This document shows, in pieces, positions 22,264-63,364 of a stretch of DNA of 64,000 bases (its first letter is position 1; the number at the start of each line of letters is the position of its first letter). A program made the translations under genes and the position numbers. The stretch spans positions 832,001-896,000 of the forward strand of contig OZ250169.1 of assembly GCA_965237955.1 (NCBI GenBank). Direction: 5' to 3'. Source of the stretch: Candidatus Marinacidobacterales bacterium. GTDB lineage: Bacteria; Acidobacteriota; Vicinamibacteria; Marinacidobacterales; SMYC01. The notes under the pieces were generated by a model, which was given only the letters and a program-made list of their open reading frames with translations, was not told the origin of the DNA and did no database searches.

Positions 22264-25200
22264 AAATCGAGTTCCGTGAATTGGCCACTCACCTCCATCT
22301 GATCCCACGCGGCGAGGACGAGGCGGCGAGTGCGGTATTCGCCGTATTGGCGGACTTCCTTTTCCTTGAGTACACGGAAAGTTTCCGAGGGATAGTCGGG
22401 GCCCTTCACGTCGGCGGGGTCGAGTATATAGCGCAGCTCGTCGCGGGTCAGACCGTAGGCGCGAGCGTAGAAAGCGTCGAGATCGGCGCGCAAGTAGGCG
22501 CGGCGTTTTTCATCCCAGGCGAAGGGGGGGCCTTCATAGCCGAGGTCCCGGGCGAAGGAAGTCATTGCGTGTGAGGTATAGGTGAGTTCGAGCACCTTTG
22601 GGGTAAGAAAAGTTACGCGCTCTTGCGTGTAGAAGCTAGGAGGGAGAAGCGTAATCTGGCGCATAGTGAAGAACTTAAAGGAAGTGCCCCCAACTTTCTG
22701 GCGTGCAATGAAGTCAGTCACAAGCGAGTTCAAATTCGCATAAAGAGCCGAAACTCTTGAGGTACAGTGGTCCGGAAGCATCAATAAAAACTTGTCGTTG
22801 TAGGCAACGCGCGGAACCAAACAAGCAATCACTGTCCGCTCGTCGGTCGCCCGCGCGATATCACGCCACCCCATCAACCAGCCTCGGGACCAGCCTTTGG
22901 CAATGAGGCGCTCGTTCACTTCAGTATCCGGCACCCAATAACGGGGGGCGGGCTCGCAGGTCGGACGCTGCTTTTCCGTCTGGCCAAGGTTGGCCGAGCT
23001 TTCGCCGTCCTCGTCATAGCCCGCCCAGCGATGATCGAATTGATGGATCATCTTCGCCTCGTAGAGCGGTACATAGCGCATGGCGCGAGGCCCACTGTCC
23101 GAAAGCGGCAGGCTGCCGCCGTCAATCTTGTCACCTGCCCGCGCGCCTTGTGAGGGGCGCTGAGCGGAGCAAACCCAATCGGTGCCTTCGCGCACAAACC
23201 CCGCTTCTGCTAGCTCCCGTGCAGTGCGGAACAGGGAGGAATCGTTGGACATGTCGAACAGTCGCGCGAAGCTCACGCCCCACGGGTTACCTTGCTTCCC
23301 CTTGGATTCGTCGATGAGTATCGGGGCGTTGGCGTAGATCTTTGCCGTCAGTTCCGCATCGGTGCGGGAGCGGAAGATGGGTACCGTACGGGTGTTGGGG
23401 TTGATCGCCGCGATCTGCTCTGGGCTAAGGGGAAAGTTTCGCTCCGGTTCTGCCAGTTGCGCCGGGTCGGTCAGGAAGAAAGCAAATCGGGCGGCGCCTT
23501 CGTTCCGTCCAAGAGTCAGCAGACTAAACTTTATCCTGCTGTCTATTGGGAACAATCGATCGCGGTTCTCGAAATCCACCAGTTGTGCGAGCCGCCGCTC
23601 TTCGACCAACGCGGCGAAGAATGCCGCGGTGGTGGCATCGGTGGCGATACCAGTGGGTACGATCACCCCGGCGCGATCACGCGTGAGGCGTGAGAACAAC
23701 TCGGCAAACAGCGCATAGGTGTTCACGTCACCCCGCCCGGTCAGGACGAATCGTCCTCCTTCGTCGTCGGGGATGCGCACGAATTCGCTGGTCGCCTCGG
23801 CCTGGTGTTTAGCGTCGATGAAGGCAGCATGTAAGGCATGCTCGGTACTGTCTTTGGGAGCTATTTCCAGCGCCTTGATCAGCCGTGCGCGCGCGGCCTT
23901 ATTCTGGGCACCCGCGATCTCCGGCGAACGGGCGGCGAAGAATTCCTGCTCCTGCAGCTTTATCCGTTCCCACGGAGGGTTGCCCAGGACCACGTCGAAG
24001 CCGTCGCGCGCCATGATGTCGGGGAACTCCAGCGGCCAGTGGAAGGCTCTGGCTTGACGGGCGGCCTCGGGTGCTCCCGTCATGGATTGCCGAATCGTGC
24101 CTTGGCTCAAGGCCAGCCAGACTTCGTCGGTCGTGGGCACAGTGCGTGCCTTGGTGCTCAAGGGCGTGCCCCCGATCTTCGGCAGAAGGAAGGCCCCGAC
24201 ATAGAGGTCCGACGCGGCCCGCGCGCTTGCAAATGCCTCCTTCTCACGCAGTTCTTGAAACCGCGTTGCCTTTGCGCCGATTTGCTCGACCGTGTCTTCG
24301 GGGAGGTTGCGGAAGCCCGAAAAATCCCCCGCCAGCGGCTTTATCGCCGGCAGTACCGCTTGGCCCGTGCTGAAGTCGAACTCGCCTTGGCCTGCCGTCG
24401 CGTCGCGGTTCGCTCTGAGGTAGTACTTCGCGGTGACCTTGTCATCTCCGGTCAACGGCTTGTAGGCAGCATCGGGAATGCCGTCCTCAAGAACCTTTAG
24501 ATCAAAGATACCGAGCAGCGCATCGCCGCAGCGGACCTGCGCGTCGAAGAAGCCGAGGGGCAGACCCGGGTCCACCGTCTCGATCCAGAGCGCTACCTTG
24601 GTGAGCTCTACGGCCATGGGATTGCGGTCGACCCCGTGGATGCAGCATCGCGCGACATCGCGGAGCGCATGGCGGAAATCGGCGAGCGAAGGCGTGCCTT
24701 CGGCCCGGATGCGAGCGAGTCGTGTGGCGATGCGCCTTGCCGCCGCCAGAAGAAAGTGGCCTGAGCCGCACGCTGGGTCGATCACAGAAAGCCTGAGCAA
24801 CGCTTTCGCCGGGTCCTTCGCCTCGGCTTCGATCCGCTCGGGCACGGGGTCGAGCGCGGTGTCGAGGAGTGCTTGAACGAGGCTGTCGGGCGTGTAGTAA
24901 GAGCCGGTAGTCTTGCGCTGATTGCCCTTCTGCTCCGAGACGTCGGAGGCGAAGACCAGCGCGCGGCCATCATCCGCCAGTTGCGGCTGGAGTTCGAGGA
25001 GGGATTCATAGACCGAGCCTAGCTCCTCAGTCTCCATTGCCCGCCAGTTGACCGGCACCATACCGCTTTGGTCGGAAAGCCAGGAGAGTCGATAGACGGC
25101 CTCCATGAAGGCGCTGTTCTGCAGGCGGGCAGAGGCTAGATGCGGCAACTGGTCGGCTCCGAAGAGGCCGCCGAGGGCAGGAAGCGCGAGCGCGTCTTCA

Positions 25201-26243
25201 CCGGTCGCGAGTGCACGGAAGACCACCTTCATGCCCTCGTAGCGGTCATAGTGGCGGTCCCACGTCGCACCGCGCACGCAGTGCGCCCTGAGCATCGCAA
25301 GACCATAGCCGTCGATATAGAGCGTTCGAGCATCCCTCTTGGCGTTGGTGGGATGGAGAAGATTCCGGTCCTCGGCCACCATCAAGAAGATGAGCCGGTA
25401 GACGAGGCGCAGGAGCTCGTTGAACCAGACCGTCAACGATAGCGCGCCTGACTGAAGCCGTGCGGCGAGGCTTGGGTTTACGTCGAGGAAGCTCGAGCCA
25501 AGAACGCGGAGGGCGACCTCGACCTGGCCTGCCAGCCGGTCCCTTGCAGCCTCTCCTTCGCGCGCACCGGCTTCCCGCCAACGTTCAAGGGCGCAGTCGG
25601 TGGCGGGGGTTCCGGCCGCCCCGAAGCGGGAACGGTGAATGAGAAGCCAGAGCGCCGCGAAGGAGGCCGCGTCCTCGTTGGTGAAGATCTGGCTGAGGTC
25701 GGCCTCGATATGGGCGGGCCGAGTGAGCGAGGCATTGTCGCGCAGCAGGCGAAGATGAACGCCGTTGGTGGCAAGGCCCCAGAGCGCCTCATCATGCTCA
25801 TTCAGATAGTCCTGAAGCGAGAACATGGGAGAACGCGACCTGTCGGTCGAAAGGGTTGGGCTGCGCCTTTCGAGTGACTCCAACGGAGGCACGACGATGA
25901 TCGGTACGCGTTGGCCTCCAGCGATGCAGGTAACCATGCCCGATGTGTCCGTGAGGTCGGCGAATCCGAAGGTTTCCTTCAGGAAGTCATGCGCGAAGCG
26001 GCGCGTCGCTTCTGCCGAGGGCGTGTCTATTTTGGTGAACCCATCGAAGTGCGCCTGTCCGACACGGAAAGCGAGGGAAATTTCCTCTCTGATGGTGAGT
26101 CCCTTGCGAACCTCGTAATCGTCTTCGGTCTGCTCCGCGGCCTCACGGCGGTCGATTTTCGCGACCATCGCCGGAGCAATCAGATTCCCCTCGAGCGAAA
26201 GCGCCGGCCAAGCGGACATATCGGTGACTTGCTTGCGCGCCAT
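22260..26243 (-). CDS. Large N6-adenine DNA methyltransferase (type IIG/Eco57I-like, DrmMI-like)
   Basis: GSYYTP, DPACGSGHFL (motif I), GNPPW (motif IV) and a C-terminal TRD-like region. Confidence 0.92.
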   Translation of the reverse strand: MARKQVTDMSAWPALSLEGNLIAPAMVAKIDRREAAEQTEDDYEVRKGLTIREEISLAFRVGQAHFDGFTKIDTPSAEATRRFAHDFLKETFGFADLTDTSGMVTCIAGGQRVPIIVVPPLESLERRSPTLSTDRSRSPMFSLQDYLNEHDEALWGLATNGVHLRLLRDNASLTRPAHIEADLSQIFTNEDAASFAALWLLIHRSRFGAAGTPATDCALERWREAGAREGEAARDRLAGQVEVALRVLGSSFLDVNPSLAARLQSGALSLTVWFNELLRLVYRLIFLMVAEDRNLLHPTNAKRDARTLYIDGYGLAMLRAHCVRGATWDRHYDRYEGMKVVFRALATGEDALALPALGGLFGADQLPHLASARLQNSAFMEAVYRLSWLSDQSGMVPVNWRAMETEELGSVYESLLELQPQLADDGRALVFASDVSEQKGNQRKTTGSYYTPDSLVQALLDTALDPVPERIEAEAKDPAKALLRLSVIDPACGSGHFLLAAARRIATRLARIRAEGTPSLADFRHALRDVARCCIHGVDRNPMAVELTKVALWIETVDPGLPLGFFDAQVRCGDALLGIFDLKVLEDGIPDAAYKPLTGDDKVTAKYYLRANRDATAGQGEFDFSTGQAVLPAIKPLAGDFSGFRNLPEDTVEQIGAKATRFQELREKEAFASARAASDLYVGAFLLPKIGGTPLSTKARTVPTTDEVWLALSQGTIRQSMTGAPEAARQARAFHWPLEFPDIMARDGFDVVLGNPPWERIKLQEQEFFAARSPEIAGAQNKAARARLIKALEIAPKDSTEHALHAAFIDAKHQAEATSEFVRIPDDEGGRFVLTGRGDVNTYALFAELFSRLTRDRAGVIVPTGIATDATTAAFFAALVEERRLAQLVDFENRDRLFPIDSRIKFSLLTLGRNEGAARFAFFLTDPAQLAEPERNFPLSPEQIAAINPNTRTVPIFRSRTDAELTAKIYANAPILIDESKGKQGNPWGVSFARLFDMSNDSSLFRTARELAEAGFVREGTDWVCSAQRPSQGARAGDKIDGGSLPLSDSGPRAMRYVPLYEAKMIHQFDHRWAGYDEDGESSANLGQTEKQRPTCEPAPRYWVPDTEVNERLIAKGWSRGWLMGWRDIARATDERTVIACLVPRVAYNDKFLLMLPDHCTSRVSALYANLNSLVTDFIARQKVGGTSFKFFTMRQITLLPPSFYTQERVTFLTPKVLELTYTSHAMTSFARDLGYEGPPFAWDEKRRAYLRADLDAFYARAYGLTRDELRYILDPADVKGPDYPSETFRVLKEKEVRQYGEYRTRRLVLAAWDQMEVSGQFTELDL

Positions 26244-26246
26244 GGC

Positions 26247-29012
26247 TCACGCCTCGCTCGGCAACAGAACGAAGAGGCCGATGACGTCAGGGGGCTGGAC
26301 GCCTTCCACGCTCACGCGCGATGCCGACCCTGCAGCCGCCCGCAGTCTGGCATGGTCTTCCGCAAGCTTATCAGCACGCACGCGTACGAACTCGCCGATG
26401 GGACCGGCCACGAGGTCGGGCAGATCTTCCTGCGCGCGTTGGATGAACCGATCCCTTGCCGTTGGAGCCAGATCGGCAGCGGCGGGTGTGTCGAGGAGCG
26501 TCTTTGCGGCATCGCCCGATGCGACAATGGTGCCGTCGTGCAAGGCGACCAGCGCGGCTTCTTCCGCGAGCAGCAGGCGTTCCTTTCGGGCATGGATTGT
26601 GAGCTTGAAGCGAAGCCTCAGAAGCGCGATCCACGTCACGCGTTCCACGGCTGGGGTCGGCCATGCCCCCACACGACCGATTCCAAGGTTGGCGAGCGTT
26701 TCGGGGTCGAGCGATGCCTCGACAAGCGCCTCCGCAAGGGTTGCGGTGCGGGGGTGGGTCCGTGTGAGAAGCGCTGTCCCTGAGGGGGCTGGCTCGGACG
26801 GGGCAAGCCGCACAGACCGGGACATACCTTGTTGCGCCAGGCGCTCGCGCAGTCCGGCTTCGAGCGCATGAACGTGGGCCACGAGGACCGACCTCCGTGG
26901 CTCCAGGGGGACGCCAAAACGCGACATGGTGCGTTCGATGAAGGTGCGAGCTGCCTCCGGCGAACCGAGGAAGCTTGCAGCCTTTTTCCATTCGGGAGCC
27001 ACTTCTTGCGGCTTCATAGTGTTCTGGGCGAAGCGAGTCCGGGAGCGTTTCTCCTTCTCCGAGACGTCGCGCCAACGGGTTTCGACGAGGCGAGCACCGT
27101 CCTTGAGACGCAGATCGAGTGTCATCTGCTCCCTACCGCCCTGGCGAAGCATCATCGAAGCCATGAGGGCATCGGTGACGGGGGCCCGTTCGTCCGGGAG
27201 GGGCACGGTCACGCCAGTCACCTTACGGATCTCCTCGGCCTTGCGCAGGATGACGTCCAGGACGGCACCGTCGATCGCGCTCGCCGGCGAGAACATCATG
27301 ATCGAATGGACGAGTTCGGCGGGCTGGCCGAAACGGTCGACGCGACCCTCCCGCTGCTGATGGCGGGTCGGATTCCACGAAAGATCGTAATGAACCACCG
27401 TGTCGAAGAGCTGCTGGAGATTGATCCCCTCCGACAAGCAGTCGGTAGCGACCAGAATACGCTGGACCTCTTTCTCGTCTTCCGCAGGCGCCATATCGGC
27501 GACCCGGTCCCGTCGCTCGTCCGGTGTGAGCACTCCAGTGACGGCCTCGACGCGCAACTTCGGGAAGGATTTCCGCAGGCCGTTGCGAACGTGCTCTGCC
27601 GTGGCAAGATACCGGCAGAAGACGACCGGGTTCGCGCCCTTCTTCAGGAGGGGAGTGAGGACACCGACCAGCGCGTCGAGCTTCGGATCGGGCTCCTTCG
27701 TCAGGCGTTCAGCGTGCCGGACAAGGCTCAGGAGGGCAGGATCCGCATCGAACGCCACGCTCGGCTCGATGTCGACGGCGTCCTCGTCATCCCCATCCTC
27801 GTCGTAGATCTGAGACTCTAGACGCTCGGCTTCATGCGTCATGCGGTTACGCAGTGCGCTCAGAGCTGCGGTGGTTGACGAGCCGATGCAACGCATCAAT
27901 GCCAGCGTTCCCCAGAACGCCAGTCGGCGCTCGCGCTGGCTGGTTCCCGCACGGGAGACCACGCCCAGGCAATAGTCGAGGACGGCTTCCTGGAAATCGA
28001 GATAGGCCTTCGATAGTGGATAGGGCGTCTCCGTAGTTTCGTGCTTCGGGAAGGCACGCTCCTCGCCCCATTCGCCAGATACCAAATCGATTCTTCGCCG
28101 CTGCACGAAGTGACGGGCCAGGCGCTCCCGGTAACGGGCGTCGTCGAAGCTCAGAGAGGCAAATTCCAGGTCGACCAGGGACAGAAGGCGTGAGAACGCC
28201 TCCTCATCACCCGAATGCGGCGTGGCTGTCAGCAGGATCATGCGCCGTTGCGGATCGCGGGCGAGACCTTGGAGAAGTGCAAACCGCTGCTGCTTACCTT
28301 TATGAGTGCCCACGCAGGCATGGGCCTCATCCACGATCACGAAGTCGGGACAAGCCCGGGCGAATCCCTCTCGCCGCTTCTCAGCCTTGATGTAGTCCAG
28401 GCTGACCACCGTGTAGGGATAGGCATCGAAAAGCGTCTGCGCAACGGGAAGGCCACGCTCCAGCCGCGCGGCGGAGCCCGATGTGACCGCTACGGGGTCC
28501 ATACCGAAGCGGGATTTCAGTTCGAGCACCCATTGTTCGACGAGGTGAGGCGGGCATAGGACCGAGAAGGCATCGACCTCGCCGCGATCCAAGAATTCCC
28601 GAAGGATGAGACCAGCTTCAATCGTCTTGCCGATACCCACGTCATCCGCTATCAAGAGGCGAGGCACTTGGAGGCGAAGCGCCATCAGCAGCGGCACAAG
28701 CTGATAGGTCCGTGGCTCGAAAGCGAGCTGCGCTGCTGAGCGGAAAGGACCGGCCCCGCGCCGGAGAGTGAGGCGAAGCGCATCGGCAAGAAGAGCCGCC
28801 TTCGACTGGACCGTTGGAACGGCGTTTTCGGGCAGGTAGAAGCGGGCAGGTCCGACGGGCTCGCTCTCGAGCCGGGGGTCGAGAAGAACAGTGTCCTTCT
28901 CGTTGCCGGAAAGGGGGCGCAGCGCGAGTAGGTGGTCTCGGGGTGCTGGTAAGGCAACCCATTCCCGACCCCGGGCACGGACAAGGTCGCCTGGAGCAAA
29001 GGAAAGAGGCAT
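26247..29012 (-). CDS. SNF2/RapA-like SF2 helicase (DrmD-like)
   Basis: LLIADDVGIGKT, DEAH, TATPH, SEGINLQ, WNPTRHQQREGRVDR. Start assigned to MPLSF. Confidence 0.92.
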   Translation of the reverse strand: MPLSFAPGDLVRARGREWVALPAPRDHLLALRPLSGNEKDTVLLDPRLESEPVGPARFYLPENAVPTVQSKAALLADALRLTLRRGAGPFRSAAQLAFEPRTYQLVPLLMALRLQVPRLLIADDVGIGKTIEAGLILREFLDRGEVDAFSVLCPPHLVEQWVLELKSRFGMDPVAVTSGSAARLERGLPVAQTLFDAYPYTVVSLDYIKAEKRREGFARACPDFVIVDEAHACVGTHKGKQQRFALLQGLARDPQRRMILLTATPHSGDEEAFSRLLSLVDLEFASLSFDDARYRERLARHFVQRRRIDLVSGEWGEERAFPKHETTETPYPLSKAYLDFQEAVLDYCLGVVSRAGTSQRERRLAFWGTLALMRCIGSSTTAALSALRNRMTHEAERLESQIYDEDGDDEDAVDIEPSVAFDADPALLSLVRHAERLTKEPDPKLDALVGVLTPLLKKGANPVVFCRYLATAEHVRNGLRKSFPKLRVEAVTGVLTPDERRDRVADMAPAEDEKEVQRILVATDCLSEGINLQQLFDTVVHYDLSWNPTRHQQREGRVDRFGQPAELVHSIMMFSPASAIDGAVLDVILRKAEEIRKVTGVTVPLPDERAPVTDALMASMMLRQGGREQMTLDLRLKDGARLVETRWRDVSEKEKRSRTRFAQNTMKPQEVAPEWKKAASFLGSPEAARTFIERTMSRFGVPLEPRRSVLVAHVHALEAGLRERLAQQGMSRSVRLAPSEPAPSGTALLTRTHPRTATLAEALVEASLDPETLANLGIGRVGAWPTPAVERVTWIALLRLRFKLTIHARKERLLLAEEAALVALHDGTIVASGDAAKTLLDTPAAADLAPTARDRFIQRAQEDLPDLVAGPIGEFVRVRADKLAEDHARLRAAAGSASRVSVEGVQPPDVIGLFVLLPSEA

Positions 29013-29017
29013 TTCGG

Positions 29018-32000
29018 TCAGTCTCTCAATGCCGCAATCAATTCGGCCGGCAGGCCTTCGGATGAGTCGGCCGGCAGTTCGAAGAGGCTCCATCCCCGGT
29101 CGTCCGCTGCGGCCTTCACCGCCTCCGGAATAACGCCCGCTCTCGCGGCAACGTAATGGCTATGCCAGGTGAAAGGGAACGAAACATCGGCAAGGGTTAG
29201 ATGCCTTGCGTTCGGCGCGGGGATGCCATGTTGGTCGAAGACCTCCGACCAGCCGCCCTCAGTCACAGTGCCTTCCGGCGCAGTCGCGAGCACGACCTTT
29301 CCTCGCGCGAGATCAATCAGCAGTTGCTGTACCGCGACGCTGGCACGGTCGATCAACTCGTGATCGGGCTGGTTGAAATAGGACAGAAGACAACGATAAC
29401 AGCCCCGCACGCAGGCTTCTTCGCGTTCCTTGAGAAGGTTCGGGTCGTCTGCGGCGATGGCGGCATCGACCTCGTCGAAATGCATGAGTTCGAGGGCTTG
29501 CCTCGCAACCTGGTTCAGTGCATCCGGATCTTCAATCAGGCGGCTCAGCACGCCCGCACCGCCCTCGCTTGCCTCATAGGCAAGGACAGCGCGCCGGTTA
29601 TCCCGGCTGGGTAATGGCTCTCCAAGAATTTCGCCTTCCTCAAGCTGGAAGACCACCGCGATACCCCGCATCAGGGCATGCTGGAGTGTGGCGATGGTGC
29701 TCTGGTCATGGCTATCTTCGAACCGAAACAAGAGGGCATTTTTCCGGTCCCGAACAATCGGAACGATCCGCACCAGCCTGACCACATCGGGCCGAACCTC
29801 CACGTCCTCTGGATCCTCATCCTCAGTCTTGGCCCAGTATCCCGTGCGGGGATCGATCGCGAATCCGAGCACAGTTTTGTTGCGGCGCCGCTTCAAGCCT
29901 TTGTTGATCCGACTTATTTCTGCGCTGTTGGCGTATTGCAATTTCATCAGAGGCGTATCCCCGACTTGAAACTCGGCCTCAGTGACCTCGACACGCCCGT
30001 GCTTTCTCGGCCATGCGAAAACGGTCTGAATCTCAAAGCCCTGGCGAATCCGTTCCTCGTCATTGGCGGTGATACGCTCGGTCGGAGCCGCTTCGACATT
30101 GTCGATCCTTAGCGTACGTTTGACCGGTATCGCTCCGGCCATCGGGAACTGGCAGGCGTGACAGCGCTCGACTTCGCCATTGTGAGCCCCACCACAGTTC
30201 GGACAAATCACGATGTCCTGCGTCGCAAGCTGCTGACCATCAGCGGTCCGGACTTCGGGAGGCAGTTTCGCCTTGACGACCCGAAATGCGCGGCCTTCAT
30301 GATAGATGAGACTGCGAGGGCCGAACTCGGAGATAGCAAGAAAGCGGGAGCGCTGCAGGTAGGAACCTGACCTGCCCTCGCCCGGGACGAAGGCGTAGAG
30401 CGGCAACCGGGGAAAATTGTAGCCAGGAAGAAACCCTTCGGTCGCAAGGTAACGGTACGAGTAGAAGTCCGAGCCGTGGGTTGACTTGCCTCGTTCAAGA
30501 AGGGTGACCTGATCCGTGGCCTGCATCTGTGCAGCCTTGATCTTGCGCCGCTCGGCTCCAGATAGTCCTGGCACTTGAGACTGCTTGTTGGCCTCGATCA
30601 GTTGCGTGCGCGCGGAGTCATAAAGGTCACGCCATCGGTCGAAGGCGCTGTTGAACTCCGCAGATGCCTGGGTAGCAACCTCCTTTACATAGTCATCCGG
30701 GTCATCTATCCAGATAGGCTTCCGCTCGCCGACTGATGTGAGGACTTGCTCAAGGACACGGCGCAGCGGGGCGCAGGCCTTGTCCACCAGGGCGGGATCC
30801 CGGATGACCCCCCAAATCTCGTCCCTGAGGGGATAGCCTGGTTTCTGGAGGTCGAGGATTTCGGGAATGTCCGGCGACAGGGCCAGCCCCGCTGTGGCAA
30901 GCCAGACCGCCTGTAGATGAGAAGTGATTAGGTTCTTGTTGGTGATGTCGAGTGCTGGCGGGCGAACCGCACCGGCCACCATGTCGATGCGCCGCTCGAA
31001 AAAATACTGATCATGCGGCGACTGGGCCGCACAGTAAGTGAAAATCAAGGCCGTCTGTCCTGACCGTCCCGCGCGGCCCGCACGCTGCACATAATTGGCG
31101 GGCGTAGGCGGAACATTGCGCAGGTAGACCGTATTCAACGCCGAGATATCGACCCCCAGTTCCATGGTCGGCGTACAGAACAACGCGGGGAGAAACTGTT
31201 TCGATTCCCCGCTGGCCTTGATTTCAGCCTCGCACTCCGCGATCCGTGCTCGGTCGTCGGCTTCGAAGCGGAAACGCCATTCCCGCCATTCCCGTTGCTT
31301 GTGGTTCACCTGGGCCGTATGCTCCCGGCTCTCCATGCCGAACAACGAGCTGGTGTTTGCCTCGAGATCGTCGGCAACTCTGGTATAGAGGCCGCGGAAG
31401 TAAGGATTGCCGACAGCCGCTGCGCTCGGAGTGGCTTTACCTGCAATCAGTCGAATGGCTGAGGGTGATAGACGCCACCCTTGAAGTTCGCCTTCACTGG
31501 CCGTCAAAGTCACAAGCCCTTCTCCGGCCAGAATGGCAAGGAGATTGGTAAGGAAGGTGATGTAGTCGTCCCCACCAAGCTTGGTACCGATGATGCTCTC
31601 ATGGTTAATGAGGCGCGCTATGCGCGAACGCGGACCCGCGCGAAGGATCATCCGTTCTTCACGCAGACTGGTAACTTTCTTGCCAGGGGCTTTCAGGAAG
31701 AGGGTGGTACGCTCCCGCGTTGTTTCCTTGTCATCGATGCTCCAGGGAGCTCGCAGGACCGACCGCGATCTCTGGGCAACGGTGTCCAGAACGGCAAGAT
31801 CGAGAGCCTCGGTATCGACAGCTAAGCCTTCGAGCATGGCCGTTAGCAAAATCCTGATGACCTTCTTGCGAGCGTCATGATCCAGAGAGTCGAGCTCAGG
31901 CAGAATAGCCGCGAGTCTCCCCACGTCCGCAGCCACGTCGTCGAGCCCAACGAAATCCACATCGATCAACTTCAGCACGGAGAGGTTCGGATTAGTGAAA

Positions 32001-34186
32001 CGCCAGCCCCGACGCAAATCAATCCAAACGCGGTGCGCGAGCACTTTGGCCAACGCCCGCTCCGCGTCGCTGCGGACCACGGCCCCAGCCTCGGGACTCA
32101 ACATCCAGTGCACCCGCAGCGCCGTGTTCGCACCCGTAAAACCCAAGGCCCGCTGAACACGGAAGCCAAATTCGTCATCCCGCAGACCATCCTCACCGGC
32201 ATCGAGAACAGCCCGCAGGATGGCTCCACGCAGAAGAGTCACGAACAGAAAATCGTTGAAATGACCCACTTGAAGCGCCGCGTCCTGGCGGTTGTCGGTG
32301 AACCCAAGCAGCTTCCGCTTGTCCTCGGGAACCGCATTGTTGGGTTGGTTCAACCACTCGAGAGCGCTCGAGACGAGAAGCGTGGTCGCCGAGCTTCGCC
32401 CTTCAGCAGTAAGGCCCGCAAGCTTGCTGCGCTCGCGCATGCGGCTTGGCGGCTCATGGAGACAGCAGGCACAAAAGCCGAATTTGCCGGGGATGAACCA
32501 GAAGGGCTCACCGTCGTCGTCGGGATGACCGCTACCCGCGACTCTCACCTTCCTCGGCACGCGGGTTTTCCGGTACGGCCGCAGTTTGAGTAGCTCCTTG
32601 CGCTCTTCCGTCCAGCCTTCCGGAAAGTTCTCGAGCGTGCCGTCGAACCGGTAGTCCGGCTCCCCGAGACCGGCCGGCGTCAGATACCCGGCAACTTCCG
32701 TATCGTCGTCTCTCTCGATTGGGATGTCTTCGATGTTGCGCGGCAGGAAGAGGACACCATCCTCCTGCTCCGTTCTCGTCACCACGTAGTACTCCTGACC
32801 GCACTGGCGGCAGAAGCGAATGGGATAGAGCCGGGTTCCAGGAGCATCGGGATCCTCGAGTTGTCCCTCGAGCAGAACGGTTCGCTCCTTCAAACGCAAT
32901 GTTGCGAAGATGTCACCCGCACCCGCGATGAAACGATGCAGCTTGAAGGCCATAAACGCGTGTTCGCCACTACCACCCCGGTCCTTATCAGGGAGGCTGA
33001 CGCGAGTCAGGAAGTTCTCCAGCACCTCACCGCAGCGCTTGGGGTCGATTCCGCTATCCTGGGCAAGCAACTTGGTAGCTTCGACAAAGGTTATTGGCCG
33101 TCGCCGCTTGAGAATCTGGCCATCCTCCAGACCGAGCACCAGTTCCACCCAAACTGCCAGCGGATGAGTGACGAGCTCTGCATCGGTCAGCCGTTCGGGA
33201 AGGTCTCTCTTGAGTGCATTCGCAAGCTTCGGGACAACGTCTGCGCGCGCCAGACGCTCGTCCGTGGCCCGGCGCAGCGACTCGTCGATCACTCCGTCCA
33301 GGCCGATCGCGGTTCCAAACAGACGTGAAACCACCTTCGAGACTTCCAAGGCCCGGCTGGCACCACTGCCTTCGCTGGACATCGTCGCAGAAGTCCCAAT
33401 ACAGAGTGGAGCCTTGTTAGGCGTACAGCGATCGCGTAGCCGACGAACAAGAATGGCAACGTCAGCGCCCTGGCGGCCGCGGTAGGTATGCAACTCGTCC
33501 AGGACGATGAACTCAAGCCCCCTCGCGTTCGCCATGACTTGAGAATCGACGGGGTCTTGCCGAGTCAGCAAAAGCTCCGCCATCATGAAGTTGGTTAAGA
33601 GAATATCCGGCGGATTGTCCGCGACCCGCTGGCGTTCCTCCTGGTTCTCCTGTCCGGTGTAACGCCGGACCACCGGCCTGAGATTCTCCGAAAGGCCTGA
33701 CTGGTCGATAAATTTGTTGATTTCCTTGACCTGGCTGTTAGCGAGTGCGTTCATCGGATACACGATGATCGCCCGTGTCCTCGGCGCATCGCCAGCCTTC
33801 CGCGCACGGATAATGGCATCCACGATCGGAACGAAAAAACAGAGGGATTTGCCCGAGCCGGTCCCCGTGGTCACAACGAAACTCTGTCCCGCCCGCGCTT
33901 TGGCGAAGGCCTGTCCCTGGTGCCTGTAAAATGGAAGCCGCTTCGACCCGAACGGGAAAACCTGGGCCGTTTCCGGGCAAACGTCGCCGGAGTTGAGGAG
34001 ATCGTCAGCGGTTGGCCCCGCTTCGTATCGCGGATTCAGGGAAAGAAGAGCGTCCGGCCAGAAACGGCCTTCCTTATACTCGCGTTCAATCGCCTCACGT
34101 AGGTCGGGCGCCTTGATGGTACTGAAAGACTGGGAGAATCGAGCGTAGCTCTCGACAATGTGGCGATCAAAAAGAAAGGCCTTCAT
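29018..34186 (-). CDS. 1722-aa DEAD/DEAH-box helicase with C-terminal DUF1998-like Cys cluster (DrmA+DrmB-like / DruE-like)
   Basis: TGTGSGKS, YPMNALANSQ, DELH, SAT, TPTMELGVDI, QRAGRAGR. C-terminal E..EGGAG...C..GCYRCLLSYFNQ..H. Confidence 0.9.
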   Translation of the reverse strand: MKAFLFDRHIVESYARFSQSFSTIKAPDLREAIEREYKEGRFWPDALLSLNPRYEAGPTADDLLNSGDVCPETAQVFPFGSKRLPFYRHQGQAFAKARAGQSFVVTTGTGSGKSLCFFVPIVDAIIRARKAGDAPRTRAIIVYPMNALANSQVKEINKFIDQSGLSENLRPVVRRYTGQENQEERQRVADNPPDILLTNFMMAELLLTRQDPVDSQVMANARGLEFIVLDELHTYRGRQGADVAILVRRLRDRCTPNKAPLCIGTSATMSSEGSGASRALEVSKVVSRLFGTAIGLDGVIDESLRRATDERLARADVVPKLANALKRDLPERLTDAELVTHPLAVWVELVLGLEDGQILKRRRPITFVEATKLLAQDSGIDPKRCGEVLENFLTRVSLPDKDRGGSGEHAFMAFKLHRFIAGAGDIFATLRLKERTVLLEGQLEDPDAPGTRLYPIRFCRQCGQEYYVVTRTEQEDGVLFLPRNIEDIPIERDDDTEVAGYLTPAGLGEPDYRFDGTLENFPEGWTEERKELLKLRPYRKTRVPRKVRVAGSGHPDDDGEPFWFIPGKFGFCACCLHEPPSRMRERSKLAGLTAEGRSSATTLLVSSALEWLNQPNNAVPEDKRKLLGFTDNRQDAALQVGHFNDFLFVTLLRGAILRAVLDAGEDGLRDDEFGFRVQRALGFTGANTALRVHWMLSPEAGAVVRSDAERALAKVLAHRVWIDLRRGWRFTNPNLSVLKLIDVDFVGLDDVAADVGRLAAILPELDSLDHDARKKVIRILLTAMLEGLAVDTEALDLAVLDTVAQRSRSVLRAPWSIDDKETTRERTTLFLKAPGKKVTSLREERMILRAGPRSRIARLINHESIIGTKLGGDDYITFLTNLLAILAGEGLVTLTASEGELQGWRLSPSAIRLIAGKATPSAAAVGNPYFRGLYTRVADDLEANTSSLFGMESREHTAQVNHKQREWREWRFRFEADDRARIAECEAEIKASGESKQFLPALFCTPTMELGVDISALNTVYLRNVPPTPANYVQRAGRAGRSGQTALIFTYCAAQSPHDQYFFERRIDMVAGAVRPPALDITNKNLITSHLQAVWLATAGLALSPDIPEILDLQKPGYPLRDEIWGVIRDPALVDKACAPLRRVLEQVLTSVGERKPIWIDDPDDYVKEVATQASAEFNSAFDRWRDLYDSARTQLIEANKQSQVPGLSGAERRKIKAAQMQATDQVTLLERGKSTHGSDFYSYRYLATEGFLPGYNFPRLPLYAFVPGEGRSGSYLQRSRFLAISEFGPRSLIYHEGRAFRVVKAKLPPEVRTADGQQLATQDIVICPNCGGAHNGEVERCHACQFPMAGAIPVKRTLRIDNVEAAPTERITANDEERIRQGFEIQTVFAWPRKHGRVEVTEAEFQVGDTPLMKLQYANSAEISRINKGLKRRRNKTVLGFAIDPRTGYWAKTEDEDPEDVEVRPDVVRLVRIVPIVRDRKNALLFRFEDSHDQSTIATLQHALMRGIAVVFQLEEGEILGEPLPSRDNRRAVLAYEASEGGAGVLSRLIEDPDALNQVARQALELMHFDEVDAAIAADDPNLLKEREEACVRGCYRCLLSYFNQPDHELIDRASVAVQQLLIDLARGKVVLATAPEGTVTEGGWSEVFDQHGIPAPNARHLTLADVSFPFTWHSHYVAARAGVIPEAVKAAADDRGWSLFELPADSSEGLPAELIAALRD

Positions 34187-41136: not shown

Positions 41137-42296
41137 GCCTGCCAGCGCCCACTTCGTGAATGGGCTCGGTTAGCAGCAAGCTGCTCTCCGACACTGGCCT
41201 CCACCAATCAGACTCAAACTGGCCCAAATTCCCTGTCATGGTTTCCAGACTCGGATAGCTCCTTGTACTGGACCGTCTGCGGAGTCATCTTCGTTTCCTC
41301 CGTAAAACTCCGCTGGATGAATTCGAGGTTTGGCTAATTCGAATTCCGCTATTCGCCTTCTCCTCAGGCGCGATCTAGGCGTTAAGCGTCTTCTCATTGT
41401 CTGCACGATTAAGCGCAAAAACGTCCCGATAAGGCCCCAAAATCGCCCCAAACTGCACGTTAATGGCCTGTTGTGCTCTGTTTCTGATCGTTTCCAGCCA
41501 CGAACCGGAAGCTCCACTCAAGCCTCCCGACTGCGATAGCCGGAAAGATGTTCCCGTCGACGAACATTCGCTGATGAGACGTAAAGCCTTTTGCGACAAT
41601 GAGTAACGGTCGGAGCCGCCTCCGGAGGGTTTACGACACGGCCCTCTTTCAAGCGTCCAGGAGGTTGAGATTGCCGTACAAGAAATTTGATTGAAGCAAA
41701 TTCGATTCCGGCTCGGAACGAGCACCCGTCGATGAGATGTGCGGGGACCAGCACGTGGTGGCTTCCGTTAAGTCACTGTAAAAAAACAGGATAGAACGCT
41801 GTGGGCATCAGGGCTTCTCTGAGTTTTCGCTACATTGCCCCAACCACGCGCACGGCCAAAAGTTCGATCCTGACTCCCAAAATTGCCAAAATACCTTTTG
41901 CCGAGACCGGATGGCTCGAGACTGCACCATCCGCCATCCAGTCTGCCCAATTGTGGCACTGCAGAGACGGGTGAGATTTTCCGCGCGCTTGGCGGGGTTT
42001 TGCAGGATCAGGTGGCACTAGAGATGCGCTAGAAAGGCTGAACGGGCCTCATTTTCGGTTTTCGTCTCTAATCGCGATTTTCGAGTGCCACGTTTGCGCC
42101 AAAGGGGGGGAGCGGGCCGCTGACAGGGCCGTGCGGCGGCGGAAAAGAGGCCACCCGAGAGGCCCAGAATCGAGGCCCGGGCTACCGCGGCGTATCGGGC
42201 TAGCACGTTCTGGTCCAGGTGCGGCCCAGGCCTGGATCCAGACTAAGCTGCTGATTTATGGCCTATTTCAAAAGGGCCGAGTTTTGGCACAGGACG

Positions 42297-43274
42297 GGGA
42301 ACAGGTGGTGGTACTCACGCGGATGGTCTTTGGAGGTGATGGACGCAACCGTAGCTCGGGCACCGTCGGCCAGGTCCTCTGCCCCGGCCTTCAGCATCAA
42401 GGCGAGCAGGCCACGACCCAATATGGACTTGCGTTTTGGCCAATCGGCCTGCAGCACCATCTCCAATGTCGGGGACGGATAGGACTCCTCGTTAAGGATG
42501 GGTACCGCATCCTCGCCAGTGTCCTCAGTCAATATGCGCCGCAGACCGCGATAGTCCTGCAAGGGATTGGTCGTCGACGACTGTTCGTAGCGGCTCGTAA
42601 GAAATGCTCGCCAGAGAAAAATTCTCAGCAAGTGCCGCGCGTTGCCCAACTGGTCTGGATGCGTGGGAAGGTACTCCCAGATGGCCGCTATGATTGGGAT
42701 CGCCGTATAACTCGGCAGGCGCTGATCATCAAAGATGCTCTCATCCTCAAGGAAGGTCACCATTCCTTGAATGCCCTTTACCACCGAATCCCACTCAGTG
42801 AGCATCCTGGTGTAATCGATCCCTCGATAGCCTGCCTGACTTGGCACGCGATCCTGTCGCAGCGCAACCACATCGAGGACAAGGCTTGGAAGATCCGCGT
42901 AGTCGGTCGCTCTCGGCACCGCCGCCGCCAAAGCATCCACGTGCTCGTGAAGCGACTTGCCGGTCTCGTCCTCTACCAGCGCAACGACGATGTCGTATGT
43001 AGAGAGCTTCACTGAGCTCGTGTTCATCTTGATGAACACATCCAGCGCTACTTCCTTCGGCGTCTTCGCCGGCAAGGCGAGGTAAGGAAGGTTGAATTCG
43101 CGAACGTTGGTCCGGAGAACACTGATCAAACCGGAAATCGTCTTGTATGCGGCGAACCTGTCCGGTGTGTCATCCGGAATAGCCTTCTCGATCCATTGGT
43201 CGATCTCGTCCCGGATGTCCTCCGGCCGCAGCAAAGAGATGGGTATGAAGCCTCTCTGCCAGGACTCGGCAGGG
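42297..43274 (-). pseudogene. DUF262/DUF1524 (GmrSD-like) restriction protein, internal fragment
   Basis: VF.KMNT..VKLS.YD and EYHHLFP. Cut at both ends by IS termini. Confidence 0.75.
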
Positions 43275-44617: not shown

Positions 44618-45053
44618 GGCGTTGTTGCACCGCTCTGGCTGAGAGCAAAATCCGCCTATGGTGGTGGCGCGCCGCGCTTGCTCCTGAGCCAGCTTGAGGA
44701 GTCCTCCGAGAGTAGGAGGAGGGGGAGCGATCATTTCAACGGCCCTCCCGCGATGTGCCAGCGACCACACGGACGGGTTCTTTCTGAGCGTTTCCCGCAC
44801 AGCCCCCCATCCGGCTTCCCCATATCGGTTGACCAATATGATCTGCACCCCGTCCTGTGCCAAAACTCGGATCTTTCGAAATAGACCATAAATCAGCAGC
44901 TTAGCAAGTTCGGTGCGCGCGGATGAATAAATAGAAGGCACACCCAAAATCGGGTGCTTCCGCCATCAAGTGATGGAATGGACTCCTCCGCTGACATAGA
45001 CGGCATCGATGTGCCAAAGTCAGTCGAATACGCATCGAAAAGGAGGAGTCCGA

Positions 45054-46085
45054 ATGAAAGATACGACGATCGCTGTGGATCTTGCAAAGAACGTCTTCGA
45101 GATTGCCATCTCGGGAGAAGCGGGGAAGGTGTCCAAGCAACTCCGTGTGAGTCGACCCAAGTTGGTGTCGTTTTTTGCCAAACAGAGCGCTGCCACCGTG
45201 CTTCTCGAAGCCTGCGGCTCTGCTCACTTCTGGGCAAGGACGTTCCGAAGGTTGGGACACGACGTCGTCCTGCTCCCACCTCACCTCGTGAGGCCCTATC
45301 GACGCGGGAGCAAGAACGACCGCGCCGACGCCAAAGCGTTGCTCGAGGCCTACAGGAACGAGGAGATTCTTCCCGTGCCCATTAAGTCCGTGCACCAGCA
45401 CAGCCTCGCCGCGCTCCATCGCCTGCGCTCAGGATGGCTCTCCACACGGACCGCACGCATCAATGCCGTACGCGGGATCCTGCGCGAACTCGGATTCATC
45501 ATCCCAAAGGGCGCTCACTTCGTCGTGCCCGCCCTCTTCGAACTCGTCGAAGACGCTGATTCTGATTTGCCCGACGTGCTCCGTTCGCATCTCCGTGATG
45601 CCTGCTCCGAGATTCGAGAACTCAAGGACAAGTGCGCTGGCATCGAGCACGAGCTCAAGGCGCTCACCAAGCAGCTTCCTGAAGTCCAACGACTTCTCGC
45701 CATTCCCGGCATCGGACTTCTGACCGCGACCGCCATCGTGGGCTTCGTCGGCGATCTTCGCCGCTTCCCATCGGGGCGCCGCTTCTCGAGCTACCTCGGC
45801 CTAGTTCCCAAGGAAAACTCCAGTGGCGACATTCGCCGCCTCGGACGCATCACCAAGCGTGGCGACTCCTACCTCCGTATGCTCCTCACCCAGGGCGGGC
45901 GCGCCGTGCTCCGCGCGGCGAACGTCAGTAAGAGCCCGCCCGACAAGCTCCGCGCCTGGGCTCGGAAGGTCCACCGCTCGCGGGGACACAACAAGGCCGT
46001 GATTGCTGTCGCCAACAAACTCGCCCGGATCGTCTGGGCCGTCTCCACCCGCGAGAGTGAATTCCAGTCGCCGATGGCCGCTTAG
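45054..46085 (+). CDS. IS110-family DEDD recombinase/transposase
   Basis: IAVDLAKNVF, LEACG, KNDRADA, IPGIG..TA, YLGLVP...SSG, G.ITKRGD.YLR, VAVANKLARI. Confidence 0.95.
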   Translation: MKDTTIAVDLAKNVFEIAISGEAGKVSKQLRVSRPKLVSFFAKQSAATVLLEACGSAHFWARTFRRLGHDVVLLPPHLVRPYRRGSKNDRADAKALLEAYRNEEILPVPIKSVHQHSLAALHRLRSGWLSTRTARINAVRGILRELGFIIPKGAHFVVPALFELVEDADSDLPDVLRSHLRDACSEIRELKDKCAGIEHELKALTKQLPEVQRLLAIPGIGLLTATAIVGFVGDLRRFPSGRRFSSYLGLVPKENSSGDIRRLGRITKRGDSYLRMLLTQGGRAVLRAANVSKSPPDKLRAWARKVHRSRGHNKAVIAVANKLARIVWAVSTRESEFQSPMAA

Positions 46086-46149
46086 ACTTAGAGGCTCCAC
46101 TTTCGTGTTTTCCTTTTTCCCTTCCAAAAGAGGCTGCGACGATACCCAT

Positions 46150-46315
46150 CCAACTGATGGCGTACCGGTCGGACCGGCGCGGGGTCAAGCCGATAGCAAC
46201 ACTGGCCCTAAGAGGTCGTTCAAAGTGATTGGCTCCTCGCGCGCGGATTTTCCATCATGGCCCGGAGCACCCAAGACGCTCCTCACTGAGGCCGAAGATA
46301 CGTTTGCAGTCTGAC
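46150..46315 (+). ncRNA. Putative bridge RNA / seekRNA of the IS1111 element
   Basis: Contains four short segments matching the target flanks and IS ends (see findings). Confidence 0.75.
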
Positions 46316-46621
46316 CCACTCGTCACGACGCGATGGATGCGCAGCTTCGATGGAAGATTTATTAAGAAAGGGGCTTGACTAGAGGAGTCCAGATATGTTG
46401 CTACGCCGTGTTTGAATGCTAATGTCAGCTGGCCTGCCTGTGTCGGCGAACGCCATTAATAAGGATGTCGGCGTGCACACGAAGGCGTCCCTGAACGTCA
46501 GGCACCGTGTGGTCAGCCCAGCCCGCATCGCCGAAAGAACTGCGTCTCTCGAAATCAGGCTCAAACTCTAGCACACGAGCGGGTTACGCGGCAGCCACCA
46601 ACACTGGATTGCGGAAGCACC

Positions 46622-47556
46622 TTCGAGCCCGCATCTCCGGCCCGATGATCGCCTTGTAACGATAGACCGCGTTCTCCACCATGCTTCGCTTGGTGTAGCC
46701 TGAGAGCTTGTACCATTCACGTCGGCCGTGTCTTTCGATTGCACGAATATGGCGATCGCGCTCCTGCATGGCGGTGTTCGAATTCTGACTGAGCGTCGCG
46801 TTTCGTTGCAGCGGAATCACCACGCGCGTCCTTCGTCCAGGACTGTGCGCTTCGATGGCTTCGTAGACCGCTTCCTTGTCGTATGCACTGTCCGCCGCCA
46901 CCGACACTAGAGGTGCTTGAATCTGTGTTAGCAAAGCGGGGACTCGGGTTGCGTCGCGAGCTCGTGACGCCGTCAGTTCGGACGCAACAATGTTCCCTGT
47001 CTCGCGATCAACGGCGATGTGCAACTTACGCCATGCGCGCTGCTTTGGCAGTTTGCGAGCGTTTCCAACATGAATCCTCAAGCCCGTGCTATCGATCATC
47101 AGGTGGATGGGTTGAGTGCTCGCGGCTTTCGGAATCCGCAGCTTCTTGCGGAGCAACCTCGAGCGCCGACACAACGTCGAGTAGTCCGGGATCTCGATAC
47201 CGAGCCCGAGCAGCGAGGCGATCGAGTGCAAGAAGCCTTCGGTTTGTCGGTAGGCGAGCTTGCACACCATCCGGACAACCAGGCCCGTTTCAATCGCCAT
47301 GTCTGAATAGACCCGTTGACCGCCAGGCTTACCGGTCTTGTCGGCCTTCCAGTTTGCGATTGCCTCCTCGTCAAACCAGACTGTCAAATCGCCCCGGCGG
47401 CGCAGCCCTTCGTTGTATTCCGCCCAGTTGCGAACGTGGTACTTCTTCTGCTTCGCGTGCTTGTACTGGCAGCGCTTGGGATACTTCATGCTCGAACATA
47501 CCTCGGCCACCACCATAGGCGGATTTCGCTCTCAGCCAGAGCGGTGCAACAACGCC
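46622..47556 (-). mobile_element. IS903-group type A copy, 3'-truncated
   Basis: IR at 47556. Transposase intact until fused to the GGTGCTTCCGC repeat at 46621. Confidence 0.88.
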
Positions 47557-50736: not shown

Positions 50737-51157
50737 TGTGCTTCGCAAAAACTCGATTCGTCGTTGATTCCGCAGTTTAGACCTGCCAGGATTGGCCGTT
50801 TCGCGGCGAATGGATGACGTGATCCGGCGTCATTGTAAACGTGGAGGTCGTCTGGTCAAAATACTCGAACGCCCAGTGGGTCAGCAGGTTGCACCTTTCC
50901 AAGGGCTGCCTGAATCCGGCATCGCGGTCGGATACGTGTTCCTTCCGGGTGCGCAGTTCGTTGCCTGCAGCTCGCCCCGCAGCCGATTTGAGCCAGCCGT
51001 GCGCACCCCCGGTAGGCCTGTCGCCCGCCACCCGCAGCCCAGGAGTCGGAAGCCAACTCTGCGACGAGAAATACCCTGGATTCTGCGCGGATTCCAAGGG
51101 CGTCTAAGCTGCTGATTTCCAGTCTATTTCAAAAGGGCCGAGTTTTGGCACAGGACG
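50737..51157. mobile_element. 421-bp non-coding MITE bounded by two different rve-type ends
   Basis: TGTGCTTCGCAAAAACTC ... GAGTTTTGGCACAGGACG. Interior pieces recur at 1347-1385, 34740-34900, 38905-38990 and 54625-54660. Confidence 0.75.
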
Positions 51158-52122
51158 GGGTCGAAGGTCATACGGCTATCCTTGCTGCCGCGCTTTCCGA
51201 CATCGAGCACGCGGTTGAGCTTTCTCAAAACGAACCCGTATTCCAATCGAGCTACAAGAAAACCCTCGCCGACCTTAGAAAGCATGTATCGTCGCTCTCG
51301 GTATCTCCCCAGACTTCTTTACGTCGTGACGTGCGATGGATTTGGGAATCGAGATTAGCGCTCAACCCTTGCCCGCTGTGCCGACAGGAGTCACCAGAAG
51401 CATTCGACCTGTTCCCACTCGCGGCGCGGCTGGAAGGTGGCCGCCGAAAGCCGGGGGTCGATGTCGTCCTGGATTTAGTCAATAGTCTTTGCCGAAACTA
51501 TGCGACGGCACGTTGGATCTTATACAAAGCCGTAGAGGATCCGCCGCTTGAATCCGATCACGTGATCACAATTGAAGGGAATCCGTCCGCCCGTCACGAG
51601 CTTTCGGTAGGGCTACTCATGTCGGCCGCCTCAGGTTTCTACGGATTGCTCGGCCAGATTGCGTTCGCACTGAACAGTTACTACCGGCTCGGCCACGATG
51701 CTCGGGACGTGACGTTTGAGAACGTGTGGGGCCAGCCAGGAAGCCGTGGTTTACCCAGCGACCGTACCATCCTGCACCCGGCTCTACAGCGGCGCTCCGT
51801 TCCTGCACTTGCGGCCTTGTATTGGCTCGCACAGTCTTTCACCCATGGGCTGGGGCGTTACGTGGATTTGAGGAAGTGTAGAAATTCATTAGAACACCAT
51901 GTTGTTTGCGCCTTCGATGCGCCTGTAGAGTCGCCCTACTATGTCGCGTTTAACCGGAGGCGGCTTGAAGAATCCACGCTTCGGCTGGGACAAATTGCAC
52001 GAGCTGCCATTTGGTACTTTGGCGGTGCCGTCTTGTACGGCGAACAGGAGCGGGCCGAACGCTCGATCCGTCGAGGATGGAAAGTTACCAAAGGGACTCG
52101 GGGAACGGTTCGGCGCACGTGA
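51158..52122 (+). pseudogene. LA2681-like HEPN domain protein, 5'-truncated
   Basis: L.LNP, FN-like ..Y..ARW.LY, Y.LL.QIA..LN.Y, L.ALYWL, RNSLEH (R-x4-H), AR.AI.Y. Confidence 0.7.
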
Positions 52123-63222: not shown

Positions 63223-63364
63223 GGTGCTTCCGCCATCAAGTGATGGAATGGACTCCTCCGCTGACATAGACGGCATCGATGTGCCAAAGTCAGTCGAATA
63301 CGCATCGAAAAGGAGGAGTCCGAATGAAAGATACGACGATCGCTGTGGATCTTGCAAAGAACGC
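63223..63364 (+). mobile_element. Second IS1111 left end in the same target, truncated
   Basis: Identical to 44953-45093, including the 20-bp target flank. Confidence 0.88.

Follow-up and report, generated by a model that had tools for sequence, protein, structure and literature searches.

Structure of the element and its copies

The window analyzed here is a 64,000-nucleotide stretch of contig OZ250169.1 (positions 832,001 to 896,000, assembly GCA_965237955.1) from Candidatus Marinacidobacterales bacterium, whose genome (8.13 Mb) is called G000 below. At 44971-46395 it contains an insertion sequence (IS) of 1425 bp that begins with TGATGG, ends with AGATA, and is followed by TG-TTGCTA. We found that this is an intact and recently multiplied member of the IS1111 group (IS110 family), and that it targets the right terminal repeat of an IS1-like element of 1.2 kb, the host, and of the miniature inverted-repeat transposable elements (MITEs) of that host. 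The limits of the insertion are visible in contigs of public sequencing runs: at another copy, contigs of runs X1 and X2 have a gap of exactly 1425 bp with 2 ambiguous letters, and in runs X1 and X3 the uninterrupted repeat GTGCTTCCGCCATCAAG continues directly into the right flank found in the window. The junctions CATCAAG-TG-ATGGAA and CCAGATA-TG-TTGCTA, quoted in an earlier description of the locus made from the letters alone (the sequence-only reading), are present as given.

The recombinase (Table 1) contains the domains PF01548 and PF02371, scores 308.9 bits against NF033542 (cut-off 140), and carries the residues D9/E52/D89/D92 and the motif GLVPKENSSG, of the GLVP----SG type (S257). We placed its start at 45054 because of the upstream AAGGAGG and the length of the homologs; an alternative in-frame ATG lies at 45009. 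The subterminal inverted repeats comprise 10 perfect bp plus one mismatched position, and leave terminal extensions of 7 bp (TGATGGA, the mismatched position being counted in the repeat) and 3 bp (ATA). By the definition in PMC11187229, IS1111 elements have subterminal repeats with 7/3-bp extensions and a long non-coding region 3' of the gene; here, that region is 310 bp long, with the right-target guide (46194) preceding the left-target guide (46219), the order of top-strand match before bottom-strand match that characterizes the group. A DEDD recombinase of 330-350 amino acids (aa) with a GL-P----SG motif is also characteristic, and the window element encodes one of 343 aa. The group membership and intactness proposed earlier hold. 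No relative of the element was found in viral contigs, and Rfam gave no match at E ≤ 1.

Full copies account for 16 of the 25 left ends in G000, truncated copies for 8, and an interrupted copy for one; the full 343-aa frame is present in 15. TCAAG precedes every left end, within GGTGCTTCCGCCATCAAG or a close variant, and none lies in unrelated sequence. Among the 24 right ends, TG-TTGCTA comes next in 18 and internal IS sequence in the other 6. Close homologs occur in 7 of 60 related genomes (E ≤ 1e-60), and in the relative G033 the host repeat holds all 30 left ends. One site, one orientation, and no target duplication, as is typical of IS1111, were found at 25/25 and 30/30 left ends, together with the exact 1425-bp skip. 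Most G033 copies (L017-L047) are 1445 bp long rather than 1425 bp, and one is 1465 bp, the extra 20 bp lying between the donor loop and the right end. The second left end that the sequence-only reading placed at 63223 exists, but stops after 141 bp, where another element starts.

Table 1. Coordinates of the element, its predicted RNA guides, and the host repeats within the window
Feature	Positions	Strand	Basis
Outer 18 bp of host terminal inverted repeat, right-end type, ending in left target half TCAAG	44953..44970	+	sequence
IS1111 element, TGATGG to AGATA, without target duplication under these bounds	44971..46395	+	exact 1425-bp skip in contigs
Left subterminal inverted repeat TGGACTCCTC, perfect 10 bp	44979..44988	+	sequence; conserved in homologs
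Recombinase gene, 343 aa	45054..46085	+	domain matches, motifs
Predicted bridge/seek RNA	46137..46320	+	covariance model
TGATGG, 5' strand of family-conserved helix, predicted partner 46252-46257	46155..46160	+	homolog alignment
Right-target guide TAGCAACAC, complement of G-TG-TTGCTA	46194..46202	+	sequence, shuffles, covariation
Left-target guide TTCAAAGTG; AAG-TG ungapped, probably TCAAG-TG if one A bulges	46219..46227	+	covariation
Putative right-donor guide TTTCCATCA, overlapping the conserved helix	46249..46257	+	homolog comparison
Left-donor guide AGATACG	46296..46302	+	homolog comparison
TTGACT, candidate -35 box of circle-junction promoter	46375..46380	+	TTGAC in 19/33 homologs
Right subterminal inverted repeat GAGGAGTCCA	46382..46391	+	sequence
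Remainder of host 244-bp MITE, beginning with right target half TG-TTGCTA	46396..46621	+	85% identity to IS1-like left end, 89 bp
Left-type terminal repeat of host MITE (TG-TTGGTG, untargeted here)	46599..46621	-	sequence
Second copy: host repeat tip plus 123 bp of IS1111 left end, cut by another element	63223..63363	+	sequence

The target is the right end of an IS1-like element

The host element is 1200-1207 bp long, with a 369-aa transposase and 23-bp terminal repeats (21 intact loci, five relatives). Transposases of the IS1 family are of a Zn-finger/HTH/DDE type; that of the host scores best against this family (NF033558, E 5.8e-22), with 78.6 bits, below the curated cut-off of 100, and the plasmid proteins that it matches at 27-31% identity are annotated as IS1 family or hypothetical. 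Terminal inverted repeats of ~23 bp beginning with GG are typical of the IS1 family, and the host repeats are of that ~23-bp type. The family usually duplicates 8-9 bp of target (0-10 bp in the ISMhu11 subgroup), unlike the host element, in which the duplication was 0-1 bp in 22 of 22 end pairs; this could reflect later adjacent deletions. No target duplication was seen at the examined end pairs of the IS1-like element and its MITEs (~166, 226, 244, and 415 bp), an unusual feature for IS1.

The repeat 3' of the host transposase reads TG-TTGCTA in 17 of the 21 loci (TTACTA or TGGCTA in the others), and the upstream one TG-TTGG; intact 1200-bp hosts carry the exact empty target directly 3' of the transposase. 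In the window, the host is a 244-bp MITE that shares the upstream end of the IS1-like element (85% over 89 bp) and whose left-type repeat truncates an IS5-family transposase gene (46584-47516, minus strand). The sequence-only reading was right in that the element targets the terminal repeat of another mobile element, whose inverted partner ends at 46621, but the target that it called undescribed can be assigned to an IS1-like element, as its right terminal repeat. The related empty sites that it listed, at 1126, 12205 (given as ~12185), and 20131 (given as ~20110), turned out to be left-type repeats reading TG-TTGG.., as is the partner at 46621; they are relatives of the target rather than empty targets, because the right-target guide does not match TG-TTGG. 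An attC or attI site was also considered as the target and ruled out, since the right half is constant and part of a transposase-carrying element; the window element itself sits in the IS1-like repeat and not in an attC site, which sets it apart from insertions of the attC group.

Five left-type host repeats lie at the same GCTCGAA position of an IS5-family transposase gene (46622, 12206, and 20132 in the window; 1044987 and 7844956 in G000). Host repeats also often adjoin, at the same base, the end CCCGTCCTGTGC of a third, IS481/IS3-like (rve_3) element (44849-44867, 1143-1170, and 63364 onward in the window; 704979, 743022, 744248, 3051686, and 3054440 in G000), which suggests a further level of site preference. 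The copy at 63223 is also truncated by this end.

Guide RNA

A covariance model built from 20 homologs gave 96 matches in 100 sources, including the 3' region of ISPa25 (105.9 bits). The anchors were satisfied by 45 of these matches; dereplication reduced them to 40, and both flanks were available for 32. The left-end pattern of a 20-element set required TG, and the dinucleotide counts given below come from the set without that requirement. The exact guide pattern misses G033, whose stem differs by one base.

The four guide segments of the sequence-only reading were all recovered: TAGCAACA at 46194-46201 (9 of 9 with the following C), AAGTG at 46223-46227, TTCCATCA at 46250-46257, and AGATACG at 46296-46302. 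Among 3000 dinucleotide shuffles of the 3' region, TAGCAACA appeared 3 times, TTCCATCA 17 times, and both together 0 times, while AAGTG appeared 357 times and AGATATG with one mismatch 578 times. These last two are not significant alone and depend on covariation among homologs. In the 32 homologs, agreement between the left-target guide and the flank of the same element is 4.41 of 7 positions, compared with 2.48 after permutation; for the right-target guide, the values are 7.0 and 4.87. With relatedness not removed, 0 of 5000 permutations attained either observed value. The observed scores are lowered by two rows that were kept, L072, with a wrong right-target anchor, and L151, possibly mis-paired. 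For the 20-element set, the guide-flank match was reached in 0 of 10000 permutations. The stem around the two target guides has compensatory changes, and the guides occupy its internal loop instead of being buried in paired positions; their proposed identity holds.

The left guide reads TTCAAAG, and the insertions found after TTCAAG outside the usual site in a related genome (G012) suggest that it pairs with one A bulged. Its dinucleotide is TG in the window element and CG in 36 of 40 homologs. On the minus strand, the DNA of the right-target guide (46194-46205) is itself a near-target, GCCAG-TG-TTGCTA; no self-insertion was noticed there.

Core dinucleotide and donor guides

At the left junction, 31 of 35 homologs have TG, while the right junction has CG, CC, GG, TG, or another dinucleotide. 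A TG contributed by the donor and another dinucleotide contributed by the target fit an insertion to the left of the dinucleotide, as the ends are drawn by Siddiquee et al. The TG core described by the sequence-only reading is real for the window element (TG/TG), but the two junctions agree in their dinucleotide in only 5 of 32 homologs; the identity is a coincidence of donor and target in this copy and not a core shared by the clade. IS621, by comparison, has a conserved CT core (PMC11208160).

In a bridge RNA of the IS621 type, the donor guides lie in a simple internal loop and covary with the donor DNA. Of the two donor guides that had been proposed here, the left one follows the right end of the element, the guide being AGATA or ATATA and matching that end in most homologs. 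The right one is partly contained in a conserved helix, and its covariation with DNA is weak. Its last six bases pair with 46155-46160 in the family consensus, and an alignment-free test of the pairing gave 5.74 against 5.15 (0/1000), whereas agreement with the donor DNA was weaker (5.31 against 5.10, 3/5000). It is conceivable, then, that only the target loop guides, that the protein reads the donor ends via the subterminal repeats (with, at most, help from the left-donor guide), and that the right-donor segment is a structural stem. In favor of this are changes on both sides at 4 of 6 pairs of the helix 46155-60 : 46252-57 in a structure-free alignment, and one pair that is GC in 44 and CG in 43 rows while the donor dinucleotide is TG in 31/35; also, an 82-nt seekRNA sufficed for ISEc11 (PMC11187229). 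However, the row counts come from a model-fitted alignment, which leans to the structure and is inflated by clades. Single-sequence folding of the window copy gives the helix a probability of 0, with a local hairpin instead and the segment ~60% unpaired, the TGGCC/GGCCG frame of the donor loop mirrors that of the target loop, and the segment does covary, if weakly, with donor DNA. Multi-loop donor regions were described in many IS1111 RNAs by Durrant et al. (PMC11208160). We consider guidance by the target loop alone a serious possibility that falls short of an even chance, and one that is a special case of the RNA-guided insertion proposed below rather than exclusive of it.

Tandem duplications and probable one-sided products

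In some copies there are tandem duplications, with units of 29-565 bp that stop precisely at AGATA and resume at an internal NG. This applies in G000 to 4 of the 16 full copies, in G012 to 4 of 9 (one more is unclear), and in G033 to 1 of 29 (Fisher p 0.003 counting the unclear case, a value overstated because the copies are kin). NG follows at each of the 11 distinct right-end joints, and 4 have the CG, GG, or AG of the internal site in place of TG.

A second class is anchored in the left half of the target. In G000, host DNA ending in CATCAAG is rejoined to an upstream NG, giving units of 16 bp (three loci), 79 bp, and 48-62 bp, plus five deletions from the same point. The 48-62-bp case, at G000:C1:2862327-2861940 (L225), consists of eight host-DNA units, each ending in the host repeat tip CATCAAG and seven of them extra (2862327-2861986), immediately before an IS1111 copy; despite its likeness to a repeat array, it looks like the result of serial left-target mis-joining. 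Because the outer flank is common to the 16-bp loci and this array, only two loci count as independent. The joints are located 18 bp into the host repeat, where IS1111 inserts, rather than at the host tip.

These duplications could be long-read assembly errors or slippage instead of recombinase products, considering that all come from metagenome-assembled genomes and that the left-flank array (2862327-2861986) is not covered in the four runs examined. Against such an origin, the units end exactly at AGATA (29-565 bp) or at CATCAAG (16-79 bp), the 11/11 NG joints, 4 with the dinucleotide of the internal site, come from three genomes, and a contig from an RNA run contains one further joint leaving 46395 backwards. 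We regard the artifactual explanation as improbable.

Spread of the element and exhaustion of its sites

No substitution separates 13 of the 16 full copies in G000 from the window copy. The MITE flanks of identical copies, however, differ at 4-24 of ~200 nt, and two copies sit on other host bodies, those of the IS1-like element itself; identical copies in divergent flanks point to repeated independent insertion and not mainly to hitch-hiking. Flank distances for copies on other host bodies, which came from end-gap-free alignments with few columns, were left out of this comparison.

The scan of G000 found 160 empty repeat ends, none with a perfect TCAAG-TG-TTGCTA. TTGCTA is retained in 11 of them, with 1-2 changes in TCAAG-TG, and TCAAG-TG in 33, with 1-2 changes in TTGCTA. 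Perfect target repeats are, therefore, exhausted in this genome, and the 160 empty ends, set against 20 occupied ones in one scan, make a natural mismatch map of the target. Among the relatives, empty 13-mers number 80 in G033 (where 30 copies were examined), 51 in G018, 41 in G013 (where no copy was found), 22 in G015, and 15 in G008; G012 has none, and neither have four genomes that lack the element. At two loci (G000:C1:3087636 and 7995397), the IS1-like right end lacks 3 bp exactly at the insertion point, so that CATCAAG-TG adjoins CTACG; this may be a trace left by an imprecise excision of IS1111.

That one old IS1111 insertion was merely copied around by the IS1-like transposase, its left end rebuilding the host repeat almost completely (AAGTG-ATGG versus AAGTG-TTGG), would make the constancy of the site poor evidence for RNA guidance. 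This reading would agree with the 21/24 identity of the outer repeat tip plus IS left end to the partner repeat, with several truncated copies adjoining host repeats, and with a few copies having common outer flanks, but it is very improbable and as a sole cause largely refuted by flanks up to 12% divergent and different host bodies around identical copies, by the guide mismatches carried by the only TTGCTA repeats that are empty, and by a covariation among homologs that is independent of copy number, although some copies may still be explained in this way.

A probable recent change of target

G000 also codes for a paralog (at 5247238, 93% aa identity). The donor guides of this paralog are unchanged, but its target guides read TAACAATCG and GCAG-CG, and it is flanked by CTCCAG and TG-ATTGTTA. 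The empty site reconstructed for it is a hairpin of 114 nt with the ends GGATAAC / GTTATAC, located between two co-oriented open reading frames, and 0 of 300 shuffles were as stable. By motif and hairpin, the site appears attC-like. A search of G000 for tyrosine recombinases gave 18 matches, none of them close to the paralog. GTTRR, an attC-like motif, is found just to the right of the insertion in 20 of 32 homologs, and in a tree of 52 proteins the window element and the paralog form a clade (100/100) nested among relatives with attC-like flanks (attC labels were assigned by eye from the flanks). Such a close paralog with other target guides and an attC-like site makes it likely that retargeting is recent; to move from attC to the IS1-like repeat, one guide would have needed four changes and the other approximately three.

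Natural reprogramming is already known from ISEc11/ISXne4 (PMC11187229). A relative with 62% identity (L006, L013, in G009) has a readable non-attC target, GTCCAGA-CG-CAGTTG, with matching guides, and further retargeted members are L066-L070, L072, and L184.

Proposed mechanism

It is very probable that a complex of recombinase and RNA copies the element out as a circle (AGATA joined to TGATGG), which is then inserted at the place where TCAAG and TGTTGCTA base-pair with the target guides. The 3' RNA would base-pair with both strands of TCAAG-TGTTGCTA, guiding the DEDD recombinase to the right end of the host. Copying out of the top strand would produce the circle and, at its junction, a promoter, and insertion would take place to the left of the dinucleotide without target duplication. 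For expression, circle, promoter, and strand order, we follow the published IS110/IS1111 work (including PMC13626964), and for the remainder the anatomy, site constancy, covariation, and occupancy described above. The present specificity may have arisen from an attC-targeting ancestor by a few guide substitutions, as the tree and the paralog suggest. The junctions indicate that in one-sided reactions either left half (AGATA or TCAAG) would join a nearby upstream NG, resulting in tandem duplications or deletions. The candidate junction promoter, TTGACT-N18-TGGAAT, has a -10 box without A at position 2; a promoter scan of the linear locus gave 0 sites.

Several observations weigh against this mechanism. 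The circle junction was found neither in the assembly nor among the contig joints of the public runs, where its absence is not demonstrable because contigs drop rare forms, and expression was not seen in the RNA runs, which exist in contig form only (7-31% of words present). The permutation tests on the guides leave relatedness in, and the distance from the cut to the 5' end of the right-target match varies among homologs from 8 to 10 nt. One perfect 13-mer without the repeat tip (G000:3549651) stays empty, and G033 retains 80 empty sites beside its 30 copies. Some G000 copies with common outer flanks probably spread by duplication and not by insertion. Finally, 6 of 9 copies in G012 lie outside the host repeat, at partial matches, two of them after TTCAAG (compared with 0 of 30 in G033); therefore, the specificity is not absolute.

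More speculatively, these data could be joined into a host-parasite cycle between transposons, in which an attC-homing IS1111 element was reprogrammed by about seven guide substitutions to the right end of an IS1-like element, filled every perfect site, and then underwent one-sided reactions from both left halves. Only guide-mismatched host ends would survive, off-site insertions, guide-RNA amplification, and short host-DNA arrays would follow, and the conserved helix, by hiding the right-donor guide, would explain the bias toward left halves. We propose this complete sequence of events only tentatively and think it rather unlikely to hold in all its parts. If it did, recombination in this clade would not need a matching core, and the clade would provide an editing scaffold with fewer constraints than IS621.

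Surroundings in the window

Around the element, the window has defense-island content (25-1122, 21502-34186, 42263-43234, and 51145-52122), with a BrxL-like ATPase fragment, HNH, an Eco57I-type methylase, an SNF2 helicase and a DEAD-box helicase with an MrfA Zn domain (DISARM-like), a weak GmrSD_N match, and HEPN_LA2681.

Comparison with known systems

Insertion of IS1111-group elements at one position of terminal inverted repeats reportedly occurs in IS4321/IS5075 (Tn21 repeats) and IS1383 (IS1384 repeats). The element in the window differs from these in that its host is an IS1-like element with MITEs and in that only the right-type repeat is used. Our literature search, which did not extend to ISfinder, found no IS1111 element targeting the inverted repeats of the IS1 family.

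The best named relative among plasmids is ISPa25 (46.3% aa identity). With ISPa25, ISKpn4, and ISPst6, members of the IS1111-attC group (PMC11187229), the window element shares the left end TGATGG(A/G)ATGGACTCC, the ATA right extension, the RNA model, and the order of the guides, and it nests among them in the tree. It differs from that group in having an IS1-like terminal repeat as the target instead of attC, and TG in the left-target guide where most have CG.

One-sided products have precedents in repeats anchored at the left donor (bioRxiv 10.64898/2026.08.14.744561), in the transfer of the left donor to a new right target (bioRxiv 10.1101/2025.10.25.684509), in half-match reactions (bioRxiv 10.64898/2026.08.31.748434), and in the tandem ssr9 copies of ISPpu9 (PMC12288879). 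As in our copies, tandem units in half-match and left-donor-anchored expansion and in ssr9 keep the left-donor boundary, by one-sided reactions. The available parts of the papers on half-match and left-donor-anchored reactions, however, class boundaries by donor arms, with no left-target-only class, whereas here repeats anchored at the left target duplicate host DNA. We did not find such duplications described in the literature searched, with preprint supplements outside the search. Published work already covers this class of mechanism, the homing into IS repeats, and duplications anchored at the donor; what the window element offers is a clear natural case of retargeting rather than a new mechanism. 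Two proteins with 93% identity and two targets in one genome are a natural pair for testing how the guides of IS1111 elements are read.

The only solved relatives are IS621 and ISCro4 (E 2e-8 and 5e-9), with which the window element shares DEDD plus Tnp domains and, as predicted, a two-loop RNA with target guides and putative donor guides. Compared with them, the RNA of the window element is located 3' of the gene, the order of the guides is reversed, the subterminal repeats are long, and there is no conserved shared core (5/32). The tolerance of an unmatched core, the helix over the right-donor guide, and the left-target-anchored duplications as a by-product are leads for bridge editing.

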